Assembly: GCA_964589935.1 (NCBI GenBank)
Contig: CAZPVD010000008.1
Coordinates: 48,596-112,595 of the forward strand
Length of the DNA: 64,000 bases
Reading direction: 5' to 3'
Source: an uncultured Verrucomicrobiota bacterium
GTDB taxonomy: Bacteria > Verrucomicrobiota > Verrucomicrobiia > Limisphaerales > VHCN01
Shown: piece by piece, positions 17,134-26,075 of the stretch
Layout of the letters: each line of letters starts with the position of its first letter
Position numbering within the stretch: the first letter of the stretch is position 1
Program-made: the position numbers and the translations under genes
The notes under the pieces: generated by a model
Seen by the model: only the letters and a program-made list of their open reading frames with translations
Database searches by the model: none
What the model was told of the DNA's origin: nothing

Positions 17134-20115
17134 ATGAACCGGCCCAGCACGGAATCGCTCGTTCGGCAAATCGCGGGCATCGCCTCGCCGAAGGAGCGCG
17201 CCGCCTTCATCGAGCGAGCCTGCGCGGGTGACGATGAGCTGCGCGAGCGAGTCATGTCGCAGCTTGATGCCGTTGAGCGGACGAGAAGTTCTCCCGTGGA
17301 TGCCGCGCCGGCAAAGGCCGAGGTTTATTTTCCTCCCATCAATCGCGGTGCAGAAGCGGTCACGACCGAACAGCGCGGCGACACGATTGGCCGATACCGA
17401 TTGATCCAAGAAATCGGCGAGGGCGGTTGCGGCACGGTGTTCCTCGCTGAACAGGAGGAGCCGGTCCGACGCCAGGTCGCGCTCAAGGTCATCAAGCTCG
17501 GCATGGACACGCGGCAAGTGGTGGCGCGCTTTGAAGTCGAGCGTCAGGCGCTGGCGATGATGGATCATCCGAACATCGCGCGGGTGCTGGATGCCGGGGC
17601 CACCGACACGGGGCGTCCGTTCTTCGTCATGGAGTTGGTCCGCGGAATCAACATCACCGAGTTCTGCGATCAAAACCGCCTGAAGCAGAGCGAGCGCATC
17701 GAGTTGTTCATCAAAGTTTGCCGGGCGATTCAACACGCGCACCAGAAGGGCGTCATCCATCGCGACATCAAGCCGTCGAACATTCTTGTGTCGCTGCACG
17801 ACGGCGTGGCGGTGCCCAAGGTGATTGACTTCGGCATTGCCAAGGCGATGGACGAGAGCCTGCCCAGAAACACGCTGCTCACTCCGTATCAGGCGTTCAT
17901 CGGCACGCCGGCTTACGCAAGCCCGGAGCAGGCGGATGCCGCCGGACTGGACGTGGACACGCGCAGCGACATCTACAGTCTGGGCGCCGTGCTTTATGAG
18001 TTGCTGACCGGATACCAGCCCTTCGATCAGGACAAATTTGTGGAGACTGGCCTCGTCGGTGTGCGCCGCGTCATTTGCGAAACGGATCCGCTCCGGCCCT
18101 CGACCCGCCTGCGCAATCTTGACCGCGCGAAGCTCGCCGCCGTGGCTCGAACGCGACACGCCGAACCGGAGCGACTGCCCACGCAGATGCGCGGGGATTT
18201 GGATTGGATCGTGATGAAGTGTCTGGAGAAGGACCGGGCGCGGCGTTACGAAACCGCCAACGGCCTCGCGGCGGATCTCAGGCGATATTTGCAAAACGAA
18301 CCGGTGGTCGCGCGGCCACCGACCACCACCTACGTCCTGCAAAAGCTCATGCGTCGGCACCGGCTGGTTTTTGCCGCTGGCAGCGCCGTGGCCGCTTCGC
18401 TTGTGATCGGCCTGGCGACTTCCATGTCGCTTTATTTTCGCGAGCGGGCCGCGAAACACCAGCAGGAGCTTCTCCAGAAGGAGGCCGATGTGAACGCCAG
18501 GCGTGCCGGAATCAATGCCGAGAAGGCGCGCAGTGAGGCAGCGAAAAGCCGCGAGGTTTCGCTGTTCATGAAGGAAATGATCGAGAGCGTCGGGCCGGTG
18601 GCCATGGCCAGCGAATCCACGGCGTGGCGGCAGATCGTGGACAAGGCCGCCGAGCGCATCGGCACGGACGAACTTCATCCGGCGGTTGAATGGGAACTGC
18701 GGACCACGCTCGGCGAGGTCTACTCCAGCCTCGGACAGCGTCGGCGCGCCATTGACATGCACCGCGAGGCGCTGCGGCTGGCGCGCCGACACGCGGAACT
18801 CGCGCCGTTCAAGGTGATTGATTCGCTCGTCAATCTCGGCTGGCACCTGAGCCAGGGCGGGCAGGCGCAGGCCGCCGACCCGCTGTTGCGCGAAGCGGTC
18901 CAGCTCGGCGCGCAAAGTTATCCCCAAAGCCACCCGCGGCTTACGTGGATCAAGGGCCGCCTCGGGTGGAACCTGATGTCCCTGCGGCAGATGGACGAAG
19001 CGGAAGCCGTGTGCCGCGAGGCGCTGGAGAAGGCGCGCCAATACTGGAAAAGCCCCGGCGCCTCACGTGACGAACTGCCCGCCAGCCTTTCCTCGTTCGC
19101 CACCGCACAGGCTTACGTCATGCAACTCCGCGGCAGAACGGCCGAAGCAGAGGCGCTCTTCCGGGAGGCGCTCGACGCCGCCCGGCGCGACAAGGGCGAC
19201 GACCATCCCGACCTTCGCGCATGGATGCACAACCTCGCCTCGTTCCTGCTCGCCAACGGCAAGCGCGACGAGGCCGAAATCCTTTTTCGCAGCGCGTGGG
19301 ACATCGCCCAACGCCACACTCCAAATCATCCCGGCCAAATCTCCGGCGCGGGCAGCCTCGCCATGATGCTGCGCGAACGCGGCGACGACGCCGAGGCGGA
19401 TGAAATCATCTCGCGCCTGATCGCCACAGCGAAGTCGCTTGCCGAGCGTGACCGTTTTGTCTGGGCCAACGGCCTCGCCTCACTCGGCATGACGGCCGCG
19501 TGGCGCGATTACTCGAAGGACGCCGTCCTGCTGCTCGAAAGCGCGTCCCAACTCGGCAGCGACAACGAGCAAATCCCGGCCTACCTGATGGCAGTTTCAT
19601 GGTCGAGGAAGGACGCGCCGGCGCTTCGCGCGGCGTTCACGGATTTCGTCTCCCGCCTCGGCAAACCCGGCCTCCCGGACCTCGCGTTGAGCGCGTGCGA
19701 GGCCCTCGCCATGTCACCCTCGGCCACGGGCGACGCACAGGCCCTCCGACGGCTGGCGGACGCGGCGCGCGCCTCGACCGAACCGGCTGGTTGGAGATTC
19801 GCCGCGCTGGCCCTCGCCGACTACCGGCTGGAACAGTTCGACACCGCCGCAGGAATGGCAGCGAAGGCGGCCGTCGAATCTGAACCGGGACCGCGCGCGG
19901 CCGGAAACTGCGTCCTCGCACTCTGCCGCCGGCGGGCCGGCCAGCACGCGGAAGCCCGCGCCTCGCTCGCCGCGGCCCGCGAAGTGATTTCAACATGGCC
20001 AAGCTCTGATGCCGTCGGGCCAAACACGCGCTGGCTCGACTTGTTCGTCAGCCGCGTCTTGTTGCAGGAGGCTGCTGCGGCAGTCGAGGATGCCGGTTCC
20101 GCAAAGGCCCACTGA
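17134..20115 (+). CDS. Hanks-type Ser/Thr protein kinase with TM helix and TPR region
   Basis: IGEGGCGTV, VALKVIK, HRDIKPSN, KVIDFG, GTPAYASPEQ; TM near LVFAAGSAVAASLVIGL; C-terminal TPR-like repeats. Confidence 0.93.
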   Translation: MNRPSTESLVRQIAGIASPKERAAFIERACAGDDELRERVMSQLDAVERTRSSPVDAAPAKAEVYFPPINRGAEAVTTEQRGDTIGRYRLIQEIGEGGCGTVFLAEQEEPVRRQVALKVIKLGMDTRQVVARFEVERQALAMMDHPNIARVLDAGATDTGRPFFVMELVRGINITEFCDQNRLKQSERIELFIKVCRAIQHAHQKGVIHRDIKPSNILVSLHDGVAVPKVIDFGIAKAMDESLPRNTLLTPYQAFIGTPAYASPEQADAAGLDVDTRSDIYSLGAVLYELLTGYQPFDQDKFVETGLVGVRRVICETDPLRPSTRLRNLDRAKLAAVARTRHAEPERLPTQMRGDLDWIVMKCLEKDRARRYETANGLAADLRRYLQNEPVVARPPTTTYVLQKLMRRHRLVFAAGSAVAASLVIGLATSMSLYFRERAAKHQQELLQKEADVNARRAGINAEKARSEAAKSREVSLFMKEMIESVGPVAMASESTAWRQIVDKAAERIGTDELHPAVEWELRTTLGEVYSSLGQRRRAIDMHREALRLARRHAELAPFKVIDSLVNLGWHLSQGGQAQAADPLLREAVQLGAQSYPQSHPRLTWIKGRLGWNLMSLRQMDEAEAVCREALEKARQYWKSPGASRDELPASLSSFATAQAYVMQLRGRTAEAEALFREALDAARRDKGDDHPDLRAWMHNLASFLLANGKRDEAEILFRSAWDIAQRHTPNHPGQISGAGSLAMMLRERGDDAEADEIISRLIATAKSLAERDRFVWANGLASLGMTAAWRDYSKDAVLLLESASQLGSDNEQIPAYLMAVSWSRKDAPALRAAFTDFVSRLGKPGLPDLALSACEALAMSPSATGDAQALRRLADAARASTEPAGWRFAALALADYRLEQFDTAAGMAAKAAVESEPGPRAAGNCVLALCRRRAGQHAEARASLAAAREVISTWPSSDAVGPNTRWLDLFVSRVLLQEAAAAVEDAGSAKAH

Positions 20116-20144: not shown

Positions 20145-20624
20145 TTAAAGTTCGAGCGCGTAGGCTTGGTCACAACGGCCGGGGAAGTGGTCGCACGGAA
20201 TCGGCTTGAAGCCGGCTCGCTCGTAAAGCCGGACCGCCTCCTTCAACACGTTTGCTGTGCCGAGCGTCACGCGCCGGAAGCCCAGTTCGCGCGCGCCGGC
20301 CACGGCAGTTTCGAGCAACTTACGGCCCAAGCCACGTCCACGGACGGTCTGCGCAAGATACATCTTTCGCATCTCGCAGTCGCCGCTGGCTTCTGGGTGC
20401 AGCCCGACGGAGCCGATGATTTCGCCCGCGCCATTTTGCACGACCCAAAACGCGCCGCCGGTTTTGAAATAGTTCGCCTCGATGTCGGCGAGGTCGGAAT
20501 CCGTCGCGTGCGGCTCTGGCGTGAGGCCGTATTCGCGCAGCACGCCGAACACGAGCGCCTGCACCGCGGCGCAATCCGCATTCGTCGCGGCGCGGACGGT
20601 GAATTCGCCGAAGGTCTCGCTCAT
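20145..20624 (-). CDS. GNAT-family N-acetyltransferase
   Basis: EMRKMYL..VRGRGLGRKLL acetyl-CoA motif, AVRLYERAGF. Confidence 0.88.
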   Translation of the reverse strand: MSETFGEFTVRAATNADCAAVQALVFGVLREYGLTPEPHATDSDLADIEANYFKTGGAFWVVQNGAGEIIGSVGLHPEASGDCEMRKMYLAQTVRGRGLGRKLLETAVAGARELGFRRVTLGTANVLKEAVRLYERAGFKPIPCDHFPGRCDQAYALEL

Positions 20625-20625
20625 T

Positions 20626-21198
20626 TCAAAACCACTTCGGTTCAACGGGCGCAGGCTGGTGATTCGCCAGCCACTCGATGACTTCATGCGGATGGGCGGC
20701 GATGTGATAAAGGTTCGTGTTGTCGGGCTTCTTGAAGCGCAGTTCCACGAGCCGGCGGAACATCTCGATCAACGGATCATAGAAGCCGTCGGTGTTCAGG
20801 AACGCCACGGGCTTGGCGTGCTGCTGAAGCTGCTTGAGCGTCAGGATTTCGAGGATTTCCTCAAGCGTGCCCCAGCCGCCGGGCAGCGCGATAAACGCAT
20901 CCGCGCGCGCTTCCATCACGGCTTTCCGCTCGCGCATCGTTTCGACGACGATGAGTTCATCCGCCGCGCGATAGGCAAGCTCCTTGTCCACCATGAAGCG
21001 CGGGATGACGCCGACGACCTTGCCGCCGTGGCGATGAACAGCGTTTGCCATCGCGCCCATGAGGCCGACGTTGCCGCCGCCATAGACGAGCGTGATCCCG
21101 CGCTGCGCGAGCAACGCGCCGAGTTCCGCGGCGACATCAAAATAACGGCGGTCAATGGCGCTGCTCGACGCGCTGTAGACACAAATAGCCCGGTGCAT
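20626..21198 (-). CDS. LOG-family protein (TIGR00730, nucleotide phosphoribohydrolase)
   Basis: ICVYSASS, LVYGGGNVGLMG, MRERKAVM, ALPGGWGTLEE (PGGxGTxxE). Confidence 0.92.
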   Translation of the reverse strand: MHRAICVYSASSSAIDRRYFDVAAELGALLAQRGITLVYGGGNVGLMGAMANAVHRHGGKVVGVIPRFMVDKELAYRAADELIVVETMRERKAVMEARADAFIALPGGWGTLEEILEILTLKQLQQHAKPVAFLNTDGFYDPLIEMFRRLVELRFKKPDNTNLYHIAAHPHEVIEWLANHQPAPVEPKWF

Positions 21199-21251
21199 GG
21201 CGGAACGATTGTCGGAACATGCGGCGCAGGCAAGAACACTTGCGGCACGAT

Positions 21252-21479
21252 TCACAACGTCCGCCACCTACCCGACGTGCGAAGTTTCGCAAGCGAGGCG
21301 TCTTTGGCAAAAAATCGGGTCAGCCCGCAGTCGCCGCAGACGATGATGTCCACGTCTGTTCCACCAAACCAGCGCCACAAACCCGGCCACAGCGCGGCCG
21401 CGTGCCCAAGCATCGGGGACTTGGAGATGTAGAGTGAATCACGTCCGCACTCGGGACATTTATGTGAAGCGTCGTTCAT
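21252..21479 (-). CDS. Small Zn-ribbon-like protein
   Basis: 75 aa with CPECG and CGDCG knuckles. Confidence 0.6.
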   Translation of the reverse strand: MNDASHKCPECGRDSLYISKSPMLGHAAALWPGLWRWFGGTDVDIIVCGDCGLTRFFAKDASLAKLRTSGRWRTL

Positions 21480-21550: not shown

Positions 21551-22885
21551 TTACTTCACCAAGTTCGTTCCAGGCGCAGGCACCTGCACGAGCAGGTTTG
21601 GAGCGCCGTTGCCCATGAACCACGTCGGGTAGCGGCCGTCCCACTTCTCGACACGCGACTTCTCGACTTCGAGCTGCTTCAACTGGAGCAGCAGCGGATT
21701 GGCCTGCGCTTCCTGCGAAGCGCGGTTCACTTCGCGGATCGCCTCGGCCTCGGCAAATGCGGCGGTCTTGCGCGCATCGGCCTGGCCTTGTGCCTCGCGG
21801 CGGGCTTTTTCCGCAGTCGCGTTGGCTTCGAGTTCAATACGCTCGTTCTCTTTTTTCTGCGCTTCGAACTTCGCCTCGGAGACGACCTTGAGTTGCTGCG
21901 CAATGAACGTCTCGTCAATCGCCTTCTGGATTGCCGGGTTCTCGTAGGTCATGCCTCCGAACATGCCGACGGTCGTAATGCTCACGCCGCGCGTAGTGAA
22001 GAAGTTTGTCACGTCGGCCTTCACAGAATCGGCGATTTCCTGTTTCTTCGACCGCAACGCGTCGAGCGCATATTTCGCGGCGACCTCGGCGGCGGATTGT
22101 TGGATGCGCCCGCGCACCTCGTGATCCATCACGTCGGCAAGCGAGCCGCTCGGATACCAGTAGAGGAACTTCGCCGCGTCGTCCTCCGCGATGAAGGCCG
22201 TGCAGGTGAATCCCATGCTGAAGCCGACGCTATCCGCACTCTCGATCCAGATGGCCTTGTCGGCGCGCTTGAGTTGGGCGTGGGCTGCGGGCATTTCAGC
22301 GGTCGTCCATTCGCGCGTGACGGGCGAGCGGTTCACTTTCACAAGGCGCACGGTCGAGATCCAGCGGCCGTCACTTCCAAGTCGGCCTTCCTGAGACCAG
22401 CGGTGCGTGATCTGCACCCGTTTGGCAGCGACCTTGCGCTGCTTCAGGTAGTCCTCGCTCTGGAAGCGCGCCTGTTGCGTCGTGTCGCCTTCGAGCGGAA
22501 TGAGGAAGCCCGTCTCCGACGTGTCAATCTCGACATACTCCGGCCGGTCGAAAGGCTTCATGCAGCCCGCAAAGGCCAGCGGCGTGAGCACGAGCAGGAA
22601 GAGTGCGGCACCGCGCGCAAAACGATCGCGCAATTTCGCGAACCCAGCCTGCGCCCACGCGCCAAAGCACAGCCACGAGGCCGCGAGCATCAGCACGGCG
22701 GTGATGATGTGCGCCGTGTCCTTGAACGTGTCGAACGCGCGCAGCGCCTGCGCGGCGGCGTCCCCGTTGTTGAATTGATTTAACGCAAGCTCGCGTGCCA
22801 ATGCGGCTTGATGTGTGTTCAACCAACTGTTTTCCACAGTCCACAAGGCGGCGATGGCCGTCACAAACAACACAATGCGTTTCAT
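21551..22885 (-). CDS. SPFH/band-7-like membrane protein with extended N-terminal membrane region
   Basis: N-terminal hydrophobic segments, internal lipobox-like FAGC, SPFH-like core (FFTTRGVSITTVGMF..YENPAIQKAID), coiled-coil tail and KWDGRYP end motif. Confidence 0.75.
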   Translation of the reverse strand: MKRIVLFVTAIAALWTVENSWLNTHQAALARELALNQFNNGDAAAQALRAFDTFKDTAHIITAVLMLAASWLCFGAWAQAGFAKLRDRFARGAALFLLVLTPLAFAGCMKPFDRPEYVEIDTSETGFLIPLEGDTTQQARFQSEDYLKQRKVAAKRVQITHRWSQEGRLGSDGRWISTVRLVKVNRSPVTREWTTAEMPAAHAQLKRADKAIWIESADSVGFSMGFTCTAFIAEDDAAKFLYWYPSGSLADVMDHEVRGRIQQSAAEVAAKYALDALRSKKQEIADSVKADVTNFFTTRGVSITTVGMFGGMTYENPAIQKAIDETFIAQQLKVVSEAKFEAQKKENERIELEANATAEKARREAQGQADARKTAAFAEAEAIREVNRASQEAQANPLLLQLKQLEVEKSRVEKWDGRYPTWFMGNGAPNLLVQVPAPGTNLVK

Positions 22886-23027
22886 AATTTGAGCTCAGCG
22901 TTGTGCGTCGCCGACTCACCGGGATATTCCTGGCAGAAACGCCAGATACAGCACGGCACGAGCGCGCGACGCGATTGTTTGCTACTGGGGATCATGGGCC
23001 ACGGCACACGCCGGGCTAGAGGATCGC

Positions 23028-23167
23028 CCTTCCAAATGCCTGCGAGGTTAGCTGACGGGCTTGGCCTTGAAAGTGGCCTTGGCGGCGGTTGTGACCCCGC
23101 GCGCCGTTCGCCCCGGCCGGAGTTTCCACTCCGGCATCTGGTTCCCCCGCGTCGTTCCGCAGGAAGG
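23028..23167 (-). ncRNA. c-di-AMP riboswitch (ydaO/yuaA class)
   Basis: Minus strand: CCUUCC-UGCGGAAC..GCGGGGGAACCA-[perfect hairpin GCCGGAGU-GGAA-ACUCCGGC]-CGGGGCGAAC..AAGCCCGUCAGCUAACCUCGCAGGCA..GGAAGG; matches ydaO landmarks GGGGGA(A/C)CCA, GGGGYGAA and CCGUCAGCUAACCUCG in the correct order, with closing CCUUCC/GGAAGG pairing. Confidence 0.88.
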
Positions 23168-23282
23168 CGGTCCGACTTCGGCTGCAACTTCAGACGCGCG
23201 ACAAATCGCACATTCCGCGGCCTTGTCAAGTGGAACTGGGACAGCCTTGCAAAACTCCCTGTGACAAAGGAACTTTCCCCGC

Positions 23283-26075
23283 CTACACCGCGTCAAGGCT
23301 GAGGATCGCTGTGCGCAGACGAGCCTCAATGGCGCGCTGGCGTTCGGGCGCGTTGATCTTTCGCCCGTCCACTTCGGTGACGTAAAAGGTGTCCTCAGCC
23401 GCGCCTTTTTCCGTGTTGATTTTCGCGATGGAAATGTCGAGGCCAAGCTCGCTCAACGCCTGCGAGATCACGAAGAGCAACCCAACGCGGTCCTCGGTCT
23501 CGATGTCAATGACGGTCCGCGTCTCGGAAACCTCGTTGTCGAAGCTGACGCGCGTGGGCATGCGGTCACCTTCGAGGGACTGATAGAGCGGCGCGGCGTG
23601 TTTTTGTTTGGCGATGAGCGCGTGAAAATCCACATGGCCGGTGAGTGTCTTGGCGAGCAATGATTCAAATTTCTCGCGGGCTTCGCGCGACGCCAGCGTG
23701 CCCGCGAGCGCGTTGGTCACGTGAAATGTGTCCAGGATGATGCCGTCGGCGCGCGTGAAAATCTGCGCGCTGAGGATATTCAGCCCGGCTGCCGTGAACG
23801 AGCCGGCGACCTTGCCGAACAGTCCCGCGCGGTCGAACGTGCAAATCTTTGCCATCGTGCAACTGCGGTCCGCATCGTCGTGCCAGTGGACGACCGGTTC
23901 GAGCGCGTGTTCCTCGTCGAGAAGCTGCCGCGACATGAAGTCGTGCGCGAGCTTCACGTCGGTCGCGATCTCGGCGGCGTTGTGAATCTGGAAGTAGCGG
24001 CCCGGCAGGTTCTCAAAGTGCGCCGCGGTTTCCTCGGCGGTGATGGGCTTTGTGACAAGTTTGACTACTTCCTCGGCCAGCAGTTGCCGCTGGCGCGCCT
24101 CGGCTCGGATGAACTCGGTGCCTCCGGCGAGCACTTCACGCGCGCGGTGGTGAAGCGTGAGAAGCAGGGTGTCCTTGAAGCCGTTCCACAATTTGTCACT
24201 CGTGCCGAGCGAATCAGCGAGCGTGTGGAGCGTGAGCATCGCCAGCGTCTCCCGCGTCTGCACGAGCTTGGCGAAGTTGCGGACCACGGCCGGGTCGTCG
24301 AGATCGCGCCGCTGCGAAATCTGCGCCATCGCAAGGTGATGCTCGACCAGCAGTCCGAGCGTGTGGGCGGTGATGCCGTCCAGCCCCATTCGCCGCGCGA
24401 TGCGTTGCGCAAGGTGCGCGCCGGCCTCGGAATGATCGCTGTGCTCGCCCGCCTTGCCCGCGTCGTGCAACAGCAGCGCGAGGTAGAGAACCTCGGTGTG
24501 CTCAACTTCCCGGAAGATTTCCGCGTAGGCGTTGAACGGCGGCTGCGCGGCGTGCCAGAGCTGGTCGAGCTTCTCCAAGCAAACGAGCGTGTGCTCGTCG
24601 GCGGTGTATTGATGATAAAACTCGTGCTGCACGAGGCAGGTGAGCTTGCCAAACTCCGGGACGTAACGTCCCAAAAAACCCACCTCATGCATCATGCGGA
24701 GAATGCGCGAGACGTTCCCACGCTGGCGGAGAATCTCAAAGAACGTCACACGCACGTGCGGATTGCGGAGGAACTCGGCGTCCACAAGCGTTTGAAGATC
24801 GTGGCGGATGCGCGCGGCAAGGTCGGGGTGGAGATTCAGATTGCGCTGCTGGCAGTGGAGGAAAACACGCATCAGCCGCGCCGGATCGTCCTTGAACACG
24901 CGCGGCGAAACGGCCTCGATGACTCCCTCGGCGACGCGAAACCCGTCCACAACCTGCTCCCGAACCTTGCGCCGCCCCGTGAGGAGCAGTTCGCGGAAAC
25001 TGGGAAGACGCCGGGTTTGAGGCAGCAGCGCGAGGCGTTGTTCGACTGTGCGCGTGATGAGGTCAATGTTCCGCGTGTGCGCGTAGAAATCTCGCATGAA
25101 CCGCTCAAGACGGCGGCTTGGAGAACGATCCGTGTAGCCGAGGTTGTGCGCCACGTGAGGCTGGACGCTTTTCGTCAGCACGTCGGCGGCGCGGTTCGTG
25201 TGGTAATGCAGCTCGTTGCGCGCGCGCATCAGGTAGTCATAAGCCTCGGCAAGGTCCTGCGCCTCGCTCTTGCTGATGAGTTCCTTGGCTTCGAGATCGG
25301 CGAGCGAGCGCGTGCGGTATTTCACGAACGACATCCACAGCAGGTTCTGGTAATCACGCAGGCCGCCGCTGCCGTTCTTGATGTTCGGCTCCTGCATGAG
25401 CGGCGAGTTGCCGTGCTTCGTCCGGCGGGCGGCCTGGTCCGCGATGCGCGCGGCGATGTAATCATCCTCGAAGCCGCGGATGCACTTCGTCAACACCACG
25501 GCCTGCATCCGCTTGAAAAGTTCCGCGTCCCCGGTGATAAGCCGCGCCTCAATGAGCGAGGTCTTGGACTGCATGTCCTCATTCGCGGCTTTCATGCAAT
25601 CCTCGACCGTGCGCACGGACGAGCCGACCTTGAGGCCGATGTCGTAAAGCGTGTAGATCAAGCCGCCCGGCCCGGTGAGCGCGGCGAGTCGCGGATGAAG
25701 TTTGCCGCGCACCGCGGCGAGGCTGTCGCTGTCGTGCAACAGCATGATGTCAATGTCGCTGAACGGATTCAGTTCCCCGCGCCCATAACCGCCGATGGCG
25801 ATGAGCGCGATGCGCACGGGCGCGACACGCGGCGTGGCCGGTGCGCCCGCGATGACGGCGTCGAAGATGTTCCGCAGCACGGCGTCGAGCACTGCGGCGC
25901 GAGCGTGGCAGATGGCGAGGCCGCCCTGGCCCGAACGGTGAAGAAGTTTGAGCCGGTGGGTCTCGACCTTGAGGAATGTCTTGTAACGCTGCAGTTCCTG
26001 CGCGGGCTGGCGGCCCGGCGGAAGCGGCAGGCGCTTGGCGGCATTCGCTTCGATTCGTTCCCTGAGGTTCGGCAT
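23283..26075 (-). CDS. glnD: [Protein-PII] uridylyltransferase
   Basis: AIGGYGRGELNPFSDID NTase motif, EPNIKNGSGGLRD, HQYTADEH, LLHDAGK (HD), two C-terminal ACT domains (DRAGLF, DRVGLL). Confidence 0.95.
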   Translation of the reverse strand: MPNLRERIEANAAKRLPLPPGRQPAQELQRYKTFLKVETHRLKLLHRSGQGGLAICHARAAVLDAVLRNIFDAVIAGAPATPRVAPVRIALIAIGGYGRGELNPFSDIDIMLLHDSDSLAAVRGKLHPRLAALTGPGGLIYTLYDIGLKVGSSVRTVEDCMKAANEDMQSKTSLIEARLITGDAELFKRMQAVVLTKCIRGFEDDYIAARIADQAARRTKHGNSPLMQEPNIKNGSGGLRDYQNLLWMSFVKYRTRSLADLEAKELISKSEAQDLAEAYDYLMRARNELHYHTNRAADVLTKSVQPHVAHNLGYTDRSPSRRLERFMRDFYAHTRNIDLITRTVEQRLALLPQTRRLPSFRELLLTGRRKVREQVVDGFRVAEGVIEAVSPRVFKDDPARLMRVFLHCQQRNLNLHPDLAARIRHDLQTLVDAEFLRNPHVRVTFFEILRQRGNVSRILRMMHEVGFLGRYVPEFGKLTCLVQHEFYHQYTADEHTLVCLEKLDQLWHAAQPPFNAYAEIFREVEHTEVLYLALLLHDAGKAGEHSDHSEAGAHLAQRIARRMGLDGITAHTLGLLVEHHLAMAQISQRRDLDDPAVVRNFAKLVQTRETLAMLTLHTLADSLGTSDKLWNGFKDTLLLTLHHRAREVLAGGTEFIRAEARQRQLLAEEVVKLVTKPITAEETAAHFENLPGRYFQIHNAAEIATDVKLAHDFMSRQLLDEEHALEPVVHWHDDADRSCTMAKICTFDRAGLFGKVAGSFTAAGLNILSAQIFTRADGIILDTFHVTNALAGTLASREAREKFESLLAKTLTGHVDFHALIAKQKHAAPLYQSLEGDRMPTRVSFDNEVSETRTVIDIETEDRVGLLFVISQALSELGLDISIAKINTEKGAAEDTFYVTEVDGRKINAPERQRAIEARLRTAILSLDAV

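Follow-up and report, generated by a model that had tools for sequence, protein, structure and literature searches.

A 64,000-nucleotide stretch of DNA from an uncultured Verrucomicrobiota bacterium (assembly GCA_964589935.1, contig CAZPVD010000008.1, positions 48,596–112,595; hereafter the window) carries on its minus strand a riboswitch aptamer of the cyclic di-AMP (c-di-AMP) family in the 5′ leader of a gene for a 444-residue SPFH/Band_7 membrane protein. We put the probability at about 80% that this is a functional class-I c-di-AMP riboswitch that forms a module with the SPFH gene, that it belongs to a c-di-AMP regulon together with K+ importers, and that it likely acts as an OFF switch. 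c-di-AMP is a master regulator of K+ and osmolyte homeostasis, and the known targets of its riboswitches are K+ transporters, amino-acid transporters, and cell-wall enzymes. A first-pass annotation, made from the sequence alone, had proposed a ydaO-type riboswitch in front of the SPFH gene and had called the pairing an unusual gene association in a probable verrucomicrobium.

The whole window was scanned on both strands with 4227 Rfam families, and its sole match is RF00379 (c-di-AMP, ydaO/yuaA) at 23193–23022 on the minus strand. The match spans model positions 1–134 of 134 and reaches 61.2 bits (E 9.8e-12), where the gathering score is 38, so it lies far beyond chance; the search with this model that the first-pass annotation had recommended thus returned a full-length aptamer. 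Reading the sequence of 22800–23400 located every ydaO landmark that had been listed for the minus strand. These are the 5′ conserved core GCGGGGGAACCA (23139–23150), a perfect 8-bp hairpin GCCGGAGU-GGAA-ACUCCGGC (23135–23116), the motif GGGGCGAA (23114–23107), and the 3′ conserved core CCCGUCAGCUAACCUCGCAGGC (23038–23059), with the two cores identified from both the sequence and the RF00379 match. The class cores of both pseudo-symmetric halves (ACGCGGGGGAACC...GGGGCGAA...CCCGUCAGCUAACC) are present at 23150–23139, 23114–23107, and 23059–23038. A CCUUCC hairpin loop (23162–23167) and a GGAAGG segment (23028–23033) are the 5′ and 3′ strands of a presumed pseudoknot, assigned from sequence and conservation.

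An alignment of 66 aptamers shows that the CGGGG.A.CC columns of the 5′ core are invariant or nearly so and that CCG.CAGCUAAC of the 3′ core is invariant. RNAalifold analysis of the same alignment found compensatory changes on both sides in 12 of 24 helix pairs; the stem at 155–158/167–170 has them in three of its four pairs, and none is broken. The CCUUCC/CUUCC loop and the 3′ GGAAGG/GGGAAGG tail, complementary in sequence, are conserved together in loci labeled Limisphaerales/Pedosphaera and Verrucomicrobiales, and in Chthoniobacterales-type leaders both the loop and the tail differ in sequence. Leaders of orthologous genes score 44.6–67.2 bits with RF00379, which places the window aptamer near the top of the range. 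The covariance-model score, the conserved core, and the covariation bear out the assignment to the c-di-AMP/ydaO class, and the window RNA is a regular RF00379 member, not a new class.

The pairing of the riboswitch with the SPFH gene was surveyed by comparing the SPFH protein with one genome per GTDB species, which yielded 77 loci with protein identities of 48%–82%. Seventy-five of the loci are in Verrucomicrobiota, including bins titled as other taxa, and their labels include Limisphaerales/Pedosphaera, Chthoniobacterales, and Verrucomicrobiaceae; the remaining two are labeled Patescibacteria. This distribution agrees with the verrucomicrobial host that had been guessed from the sequence. 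Sixteen diverse loci were scanned with Rfam. RF00379 lies just upstream of the gene, and on its strand, in 14 of 14 Verrucomicrobiota loci (44.6–64.1 bits), and no RF00379 match was found before the homologues in the two Patescibacteria-labeled bins. Seven of the 77 loci have no upstream DNA and L036 is cut by a contig end; in the motif survey, both core motifs stand upstream of the SPFH orthologue in 62 of the 70 species-level loci with usable upstream DNA. Five loci with upstream DNA (L059, L062, L068, L073, and L075) gave no riboswitch motif in this survey. The core is kept to this extent while the flanking genes are not conserved; therefore, the riboswitch and the SPFH gene appear from these comparisons to be a self-contained, apparently monocistronic module whose parts travel together. 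The module is also present in a cultured organism. Pedosphaera parvula Ellin514 has an RF00379 match of 54.6 bits (L198:2731–2893) in front of the band 7 gene EEF57345.1/WP_083809210.1, and the genome has been public for years, so this match is surely already in database listings. Genomes that carry the module include OY969763.1, OY969715.1, OZ244652.1, and GCA_000172555.1.

The association is real and conserved, and what the first-pass annotation had called unusual is, within Verrucomicrobiota, the norm and not an oddity. The open literature yielded no text that pairs a c-di-AMP riboswitch with SPFH, band 7, or flotillin, the gene lists of Block 2010 and Nelson 2013 lying outside this search, and no open paper has both "c-di-AMP" and "SPFH" in its full text. 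Within these bounds, SPFH is a new, phylum-wide target class of c-di-AMP riboswitches.

Additional copies of the riboswitch in the collected loci tie the SPFH gene to K+ uptake. One copy precedes Kup (L012), and others precede a 666-residue KimA-like APC permease (L013 and L017). At L013:1124–4001 and L017:1124–4001, one strand carries in order a riboswitch, the KimA-like permease (666 residues), a small Cys-rich open reading frame (ORF), a second riboswitch, and the SPFH gene. Metagenome contigs were then scanned with the 3′ half and tail of this riboswitch subtype as the query, which gave at least 120 loci. This is a subtype-specific sample that was not chosen by downstream gene, and each locus was classed by the first long same-strand ORF downstream. 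Among the matches listed, 15 downstream genes belong to the 444-residue SPFH family, 48 to a flotillin/YqiK-like family of ~600 residues, and 3 encode further Band_7 proteins, with one more probable truncated Band_7 protein. The same list holds 14 KimA-like permeases, 3 Kup, 2 KdpA, and 1 YmdB; 4 cases are unclear, and a further 29 contigs were of insufficient length for classification. SPFH-domain targets thus make up ~70% of the 91 classifiable cases among the matches listed, and K+ uptake accounts for most of the rest. Representative leaders of every target class exceed the RF00379 gathering score. Since the same riboswitch heads classical K+ uptake genes in this lineage, the element is a c-di-AMP switch of the ordinary kind to which a target class has been added.

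The ~600-residue protein has a strong Band_7 match (89 bits), and its sources call it a "flotillin family protein [Verrucomicrobiae bacterium]" or "YqiK." It is a distant relative of the 444-residue SPFH protein (24% identity over 288 residues, E 3e-6), and the two families co-occur in the same genomes. At L076:4001–7178, the flotillin/YqiK-like gene follows the 444-residue SPFH gene in the same orientation across a 63-nt spacer that contains a stem-loop, and this locus may be a two-SPFH operon behind one riboswitch.

These data raise a broader proposal that we hold tentatively, at somewhat below even odds: the c-di-AMP riboswitch regulon of Verrucomicrobiota would be dominated by two paralogous SPFH scaffold families that are co-regulated with K+ uptake, and SPFH cages would be effectors of the response to K+ and turgor. 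Two papers describe stomatin-family SPFH proteins as regulators of ion channels, transporters, and membrane stiffness (PMC12344292, PMC12407830), and because of these activities a role of SPFH proteins in K+/turgor adaptation would be plausible. If the proposal is true, SPFH cages might scaffold or gate K+ transporters or channels, or buffer membrane tension; bacterial SPFH proteins would thereby gain a new physiological role, and c-di-AMP a hitherto undescribed class of targets. What SPFH, flotillin, and HflK/C-type proteins do in bacterial physiology is still poorly understood, and the riboswitch coupling is a lead on their function. The phylum-wide coupling of two SPFH families to the signal that governs Kup, KimA, and Kdp leads to the hypothesis that SPFH scaffolds act in K+/turgor adaptation; it is genetically testable, and the module is present in cultured P. 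parvula Ellin514.

The SPFH gene occupies 21551–22885 of the minus strand, and its product was assigned to the SPFH/Band_7 membrane (lipo)proteins by Pfam Band_7 (PF01145). Its homologues number 908 at E<1e-5; they are annotated as "band 7 protein [Pedosphaera parvula Ellin514]" or as "SPFH domain-containing protein," and most of them have a precomputed PF01145 match. The NCBIfam search assigned the 444-residue protein to no family. Three hydrophobic helices lie in the N-terminal part (residues 2–37, 43–89, and 93–106), and a long Ala/Glu/Lys-rich helix (residues 317–395) follows the Band_7 region in an AlphaFold2 model with a mean predicted local distance difference test (pLDDT) score of 57.5. 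Residues ~85–108 resemble a lipoprotein signal, with the positive loop KLRDRFARG, a hydrophobic stretch, and LAFAG|C; this signal follows two hydrophobic helices and is not N-terminal. G107-C108 is invariant in 53 homologues in a lipobox-like context (LAFAGC), and the homologue at L065 has no first two helices and resembles an ordinary prolipoprotein with a simple signal peptide. The pattern suggests that residues 1–108 (22562–22885, minus strand) belong to an internally processed prolipoprotein and that the SPFH domain is probably periplasm-facing and lipid-anchored. The window protein shares Band_7, the long Ala/Glu/Lys-rich helix, and an N-terminal anchor with HflK/HflC, flotillin/YqiK/FloT, and stomatin, and it is detectably similar to the flotillin/YqiK-like protein. 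It differs from these scaffolds in having an N-terminal domain of two helices ahead of the lipoprotein-type signal and its invariant Cys, and in that its gene has no conserved NfeD partner, FtsH, or protease gene nearby.

The start codon of the SPFH gene had been placed about 140 nt downstream of the riboswitch. The ATG is at 22885. The aptamer lies in the 5′ leader, on the strand of the gene, and 136 nt (22886–23021) separate the end of the Rfam match from the ATG. Related leaders have 128–297 nt in this interval, and past an element directly after the aptamer their sequence is poorly conserved. A −35-like promoter box, TTGACA, was read from the sequence at 23224–23229 (minus strand), where the first-pass annotation had seen it, and its position is conserved: of 169 related aptamers, 128 (76%) have TTGAC[AT] 70–89 nt ahead of their 5′ core, and the background in random 160-nt windows is 3.6%. 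When the spacer is read by eye, the TTGACA of the window is not followed by a good −10 hexamer, and a promoter scan gave no sigma-70-type promoter on the minus strand of the window leader. Transcription would probably start just downstream of the TTGACA and produce a monocistronic message with the riboswitch as the 5′ leader of the SPFH gene.

The element after the aptamer (22987–23029, minus strand) consists of GGGCGAUC (23029–23022), a hairpin CCCGGC-GUGU-GCCGUGG (23015–22999), and GAUCCCC (22993–22987). GGGCGAUC is able to pair with GAUCCCC, and the helix forms in the minimum free energy fold of the leader. The consensus, directly 3′ of the pseudoknot strand, is a helix of GGGCGAUC and G[G/A]UC(U)CCC that encloses a variable hairpin, and the same arrangement stands before SPFH, flotillin-like, and KimA-like genes (leaders L001–L027 and L078–L197). 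Variants of the helix are compensatory in 3 of 3 cases for GUUC:GAAC, 1 of 1 for GAAC:GUUC, and 6 of 8 for AAUC:GAUU/GGUU. A fully pairing partner is missing in 29 of 141 elements (about 20%), and 10 of the 12 non-pairing examples displayed carry GUUC[A/U]CCC, a single U-U mismatch. The 5′ strand of the helix shares 2–3 nt with the pseudoknot strand, and this overlap makes it a good candidate for a switching helix. The element may be a switching helix or an extension of the aptamer.

Several observations weigh against a functional OFF-switch module, and they concern the protein, the ligand, the retention of the aptamer, the expression platform, and the polarity. The Band_7 match of the window protein is weak (30.8 bits compared to a cut-off of 23.6, residues 216–345, profile positions 54–174 of 176), and a PDB sequence search gave no significant match, the best being P. 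horikoshii stomatin with an E value of 0.19; by both measures the protein is very divergent among SPFH scaffolds. The AlphaFold2 model, built from 53 close homologues, is poor, with the low mean pLDDT given above falling below 50 over residues 109–228.

On the side of the ligand, six-frame translation of the 64-kb window revealed no DGA...RHR motif of a diadenylate cyclase (DAC), and hence no cyclase was seen. This absence from the window would suit an aptamer that is a specificity variant of the ydaO fold and senses another ligand. Its core matches the RF00379 consensus without deviation, however, and the regulon holds the classical c-di-AMP targets Kup, KimA-like, and Kdp. DAC genes, moreover, were reported in 60 of 66 gut Verrucomicrobiota species (90.9%), with 39 CdaA and 19 DacZ (PMC12901056), and we give a different ligand the slimmest chance of the alternatives considered. 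The same survey lists no DAC for Patescibacteria (PMC12901056), and its DAC findings for the two groups match the presence and absence of the riboswitch before their SPFH homologues. A DAC class has also been drawn from Opitutae/Verrucomicrobia (PMC6741144).

Two orthologous loci, L002 and L022, retain the 3′ half of the aptamer only and have no RF00379 match. At L002:3658–3825 and L022:3659–3826 ("Proteobacteria bacterium WB5/WB4," 73–74% protein identity), the aptamer is kept from about GGCGUGCGGGG together with the tail, unrelated sequence takes the place of the 5′ half, and the SPFH gene is kept. These loci look like natural decay or loss of the riboswitch in a comparison of sequences, and the missing 5′ half implies that riboswitch control is dispensable in some lineages. 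That such close relatives have lost half of the aptamer, and that the nearest relatives have longer leaders than the window, whose leader has no Shine-Dalgarno sequence, would fit an aptamer that persists in the window as an evolutionary relic without a regulatory role. Against this, the window match covers the whole model at 61.2 bits, all conserved nucleotides of the core are intact, and the score is near the top for orthologous leaders; the promoter box and post-aptamer helix are preserved. We consider a relic highly unlikely.

The expression platform was searched for in the leader. The window leader has no site resembling an intrinsic terminator on the minus strand, and such sites are slightly enriched in related leaders (48 of 177 compared to 28 of 177 reverse-complement controls). 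An intrinsic terminator as the general platform was rejected on the absence from the window leader and on the position of many related-leader sites inside coding sequence. No recognizable Shine-Dalgarno sequence precedes the SPFH ATG in the window. A second candidate, sequestration of a start-proximal GGAGA by UCUCCCC of the post-aptamer C-rich strand, fits many flotillin-type leaders by eye only. This pairing of Shine-Dalgarno and anti-Shine-Dalgarno sequences failed the covariation test, in that leaders with the UCACC variant show no corresponding change to GGUGA; the window has no matching Shine-Dalgarno sequence, and the candidate was not supported. An RNAduplex search found no consistent partner for the ribosome-binding region across the leaders. 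The likeliest options are control of translation by a route other than Shine-Dalgarno sequestration, or Rho-dependent termination on the C-rich leader. With no conserved intrinsic terminator, control would probably be exerted on translation initiation or by Rho-dependent or processive termination, acting through the post-aptamer helix-hairpin.

An indirect route would run through a short upstream ORF (uORF) of 37 codons at 22995–22882 on the minus strand, with the SPFH gene of the window controlled by translational coupling across an AUGA overlap. The uORF is an open frame whose AUG lies within the GAUCCCC strand, the partner of GGGCGAUC in the helix; the UGA that ends it overlaps the SPFH start codon, which itself lacks a Shine-Dalgarno sequence. 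The uORF is absent, however, from the leaders of the nearest relatives (L001, L003, and L005) and is thus not a conserved feature, and chance ORFs are frequent in GC-rich leaders. Coupling through the uORF is accordingly improbable in our estimate.

The OFF polarity is based on analogy and on co-occurrence with K+ importers, and this too belongs among the points that weaken the case. The opposite polarity would have c-di-AMP activate the SPFH gene at high K+ or turgor, in opposition to the K+ importers. Such an ON switch draws on the lack of an established expression platform for the leader and on the small overlap of the post-aptamer helix with the pseudoknot strand (only 2–3 nt), which could allow stacking of the helix on the ligand-bound aptamer in place of competition between the two. 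The same post-aptamer element, however, stands before the KimA-like importer in the same genomes, and an ON switch there would induce a K+ importer at high c-di-AMP, which is physiologically implausible. To our knowledge, every characterized member of the c-di-AMP riboswitch class is an OFF switch. Of the characterized targets, kimA and kdp are covered by PMC6488665. Activation by c-di-AMP is unlikely on these grounds, though less so than the other alternatives weighed here. By analogy, the most likely arrangement is an OFF switch through which high c-di-AMP represses SPFH scaffolds and K+ importers together, because the same leader architecture precedes K+ importers, which should be repressed under that condition.

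In the mechanism that we propose with the OFF switch, binding of c-di-AMP would turn expression off. When c-di-AMP is low, as in K+ limitation or at low turgor, the SPFH proteins would be made together with the K+ importers. The riboswitch and the SPFH gene would constitute a mobile, self-contained module conserved across Verrucomicrobiota, and the same riboswitch type at the head of KimA-like, Kup, KdpA, and flotillin/YqiK-like genes would unite them in one c-di-AMP riboswitch regulon.

Among known systems, riboswitches of the ydaO type precede rpfA and cell-wall hydrolase genes in high-GC Actinobacteria. The actinobacterial leaders share with that of the window a high GC content, long spacers, no obvious terminators, and an envelope-associated target that is not a transporter. 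Their targets are a resuscitation-promoting factor or NlpC/P60 proteins and that of the window is SPFH, in a different phylum. c-di-AMP riboswitches control kimA and kdp, and K+ transporter genes of several phyla, Verrucomicrobia among them, are predicted to have one upstream (PMC6488665). The Bacillus subtilis kimA (ydaO) and ktrAB (yuaA) leaders and that of Bacillus thuringiensis kdpFABC (PMC6488665) have the same RF00379 aptamer family in the same 5′-leader position, and like these targets, verrucomicrobial copies of the riboswitch type precede KimA-like, Kup, and KdpA genes. Unlike the Bacillus switches, the window riboswitch has an SPFH/band 7 target that is neither a transporter nor a cell-wall enzyme, has no intrinsic terminator after the aptamer, and has an extra conserved helix-hairpin past the pseudoknot strand; its host phylum is the Gram-negative-type Verrucomicrobiota. 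c-di-AMP signaling through riboswitches thus has a prominent place in a Gram-negative-type phylum in which few studies have addressed it, and the platform there does not rely on intrinsic terminators.

The genes around the module in the window are not its constant companions. The ORF upstream of the leader (26111–23283, minus strand) encodes GlnD with GlnD_UR_UTase, HD, and ACT domains, and GlnD, the TPR Ser/Thr kinase, the LOG-family protein, and the GNAT protein of the window are absent from almost all other SPFH loci. NfeD, FtsH or another protease, and a kinase were considered as conserved operon partners, and none was found near the SPFH gene across the loci. The kinase gene of the window (17134–20115, plus strand) encodes a 993-residue Ser/Thr protein kinase with C-terminal TPR repeats and is oriented toward the SPFH region; its place next to the module is not conserved. 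The segment 3′ of the SPFH gene (20145–21479, minus strand) encodes a 75-residue Cys-rich ORF with weak similarity to TIGR04165, a LOG/TIGR00730-family protein (201 bits), and a GNAT acetyltransferase. Counterparts of the 75-residue Cys-rich ORF (21252–21479) lie close to the SPFH gene in L064, L013, and L017. In P. parvula, the gene after band 7 (L198:4633–5832) encodes a histidine kinase of DUF4118-HisKA-HATPase_c architecture whose membrane domain is KdpD-like; such a kinase adjoins the SPFH gene in only two other loci. Other Rfam matches in the fetched loci are an Acido-Lenti-1 small RNA at L073:138–183 (52.9 bits) and a class A RNase P RNA at L095:4181–4591 (238 bits).

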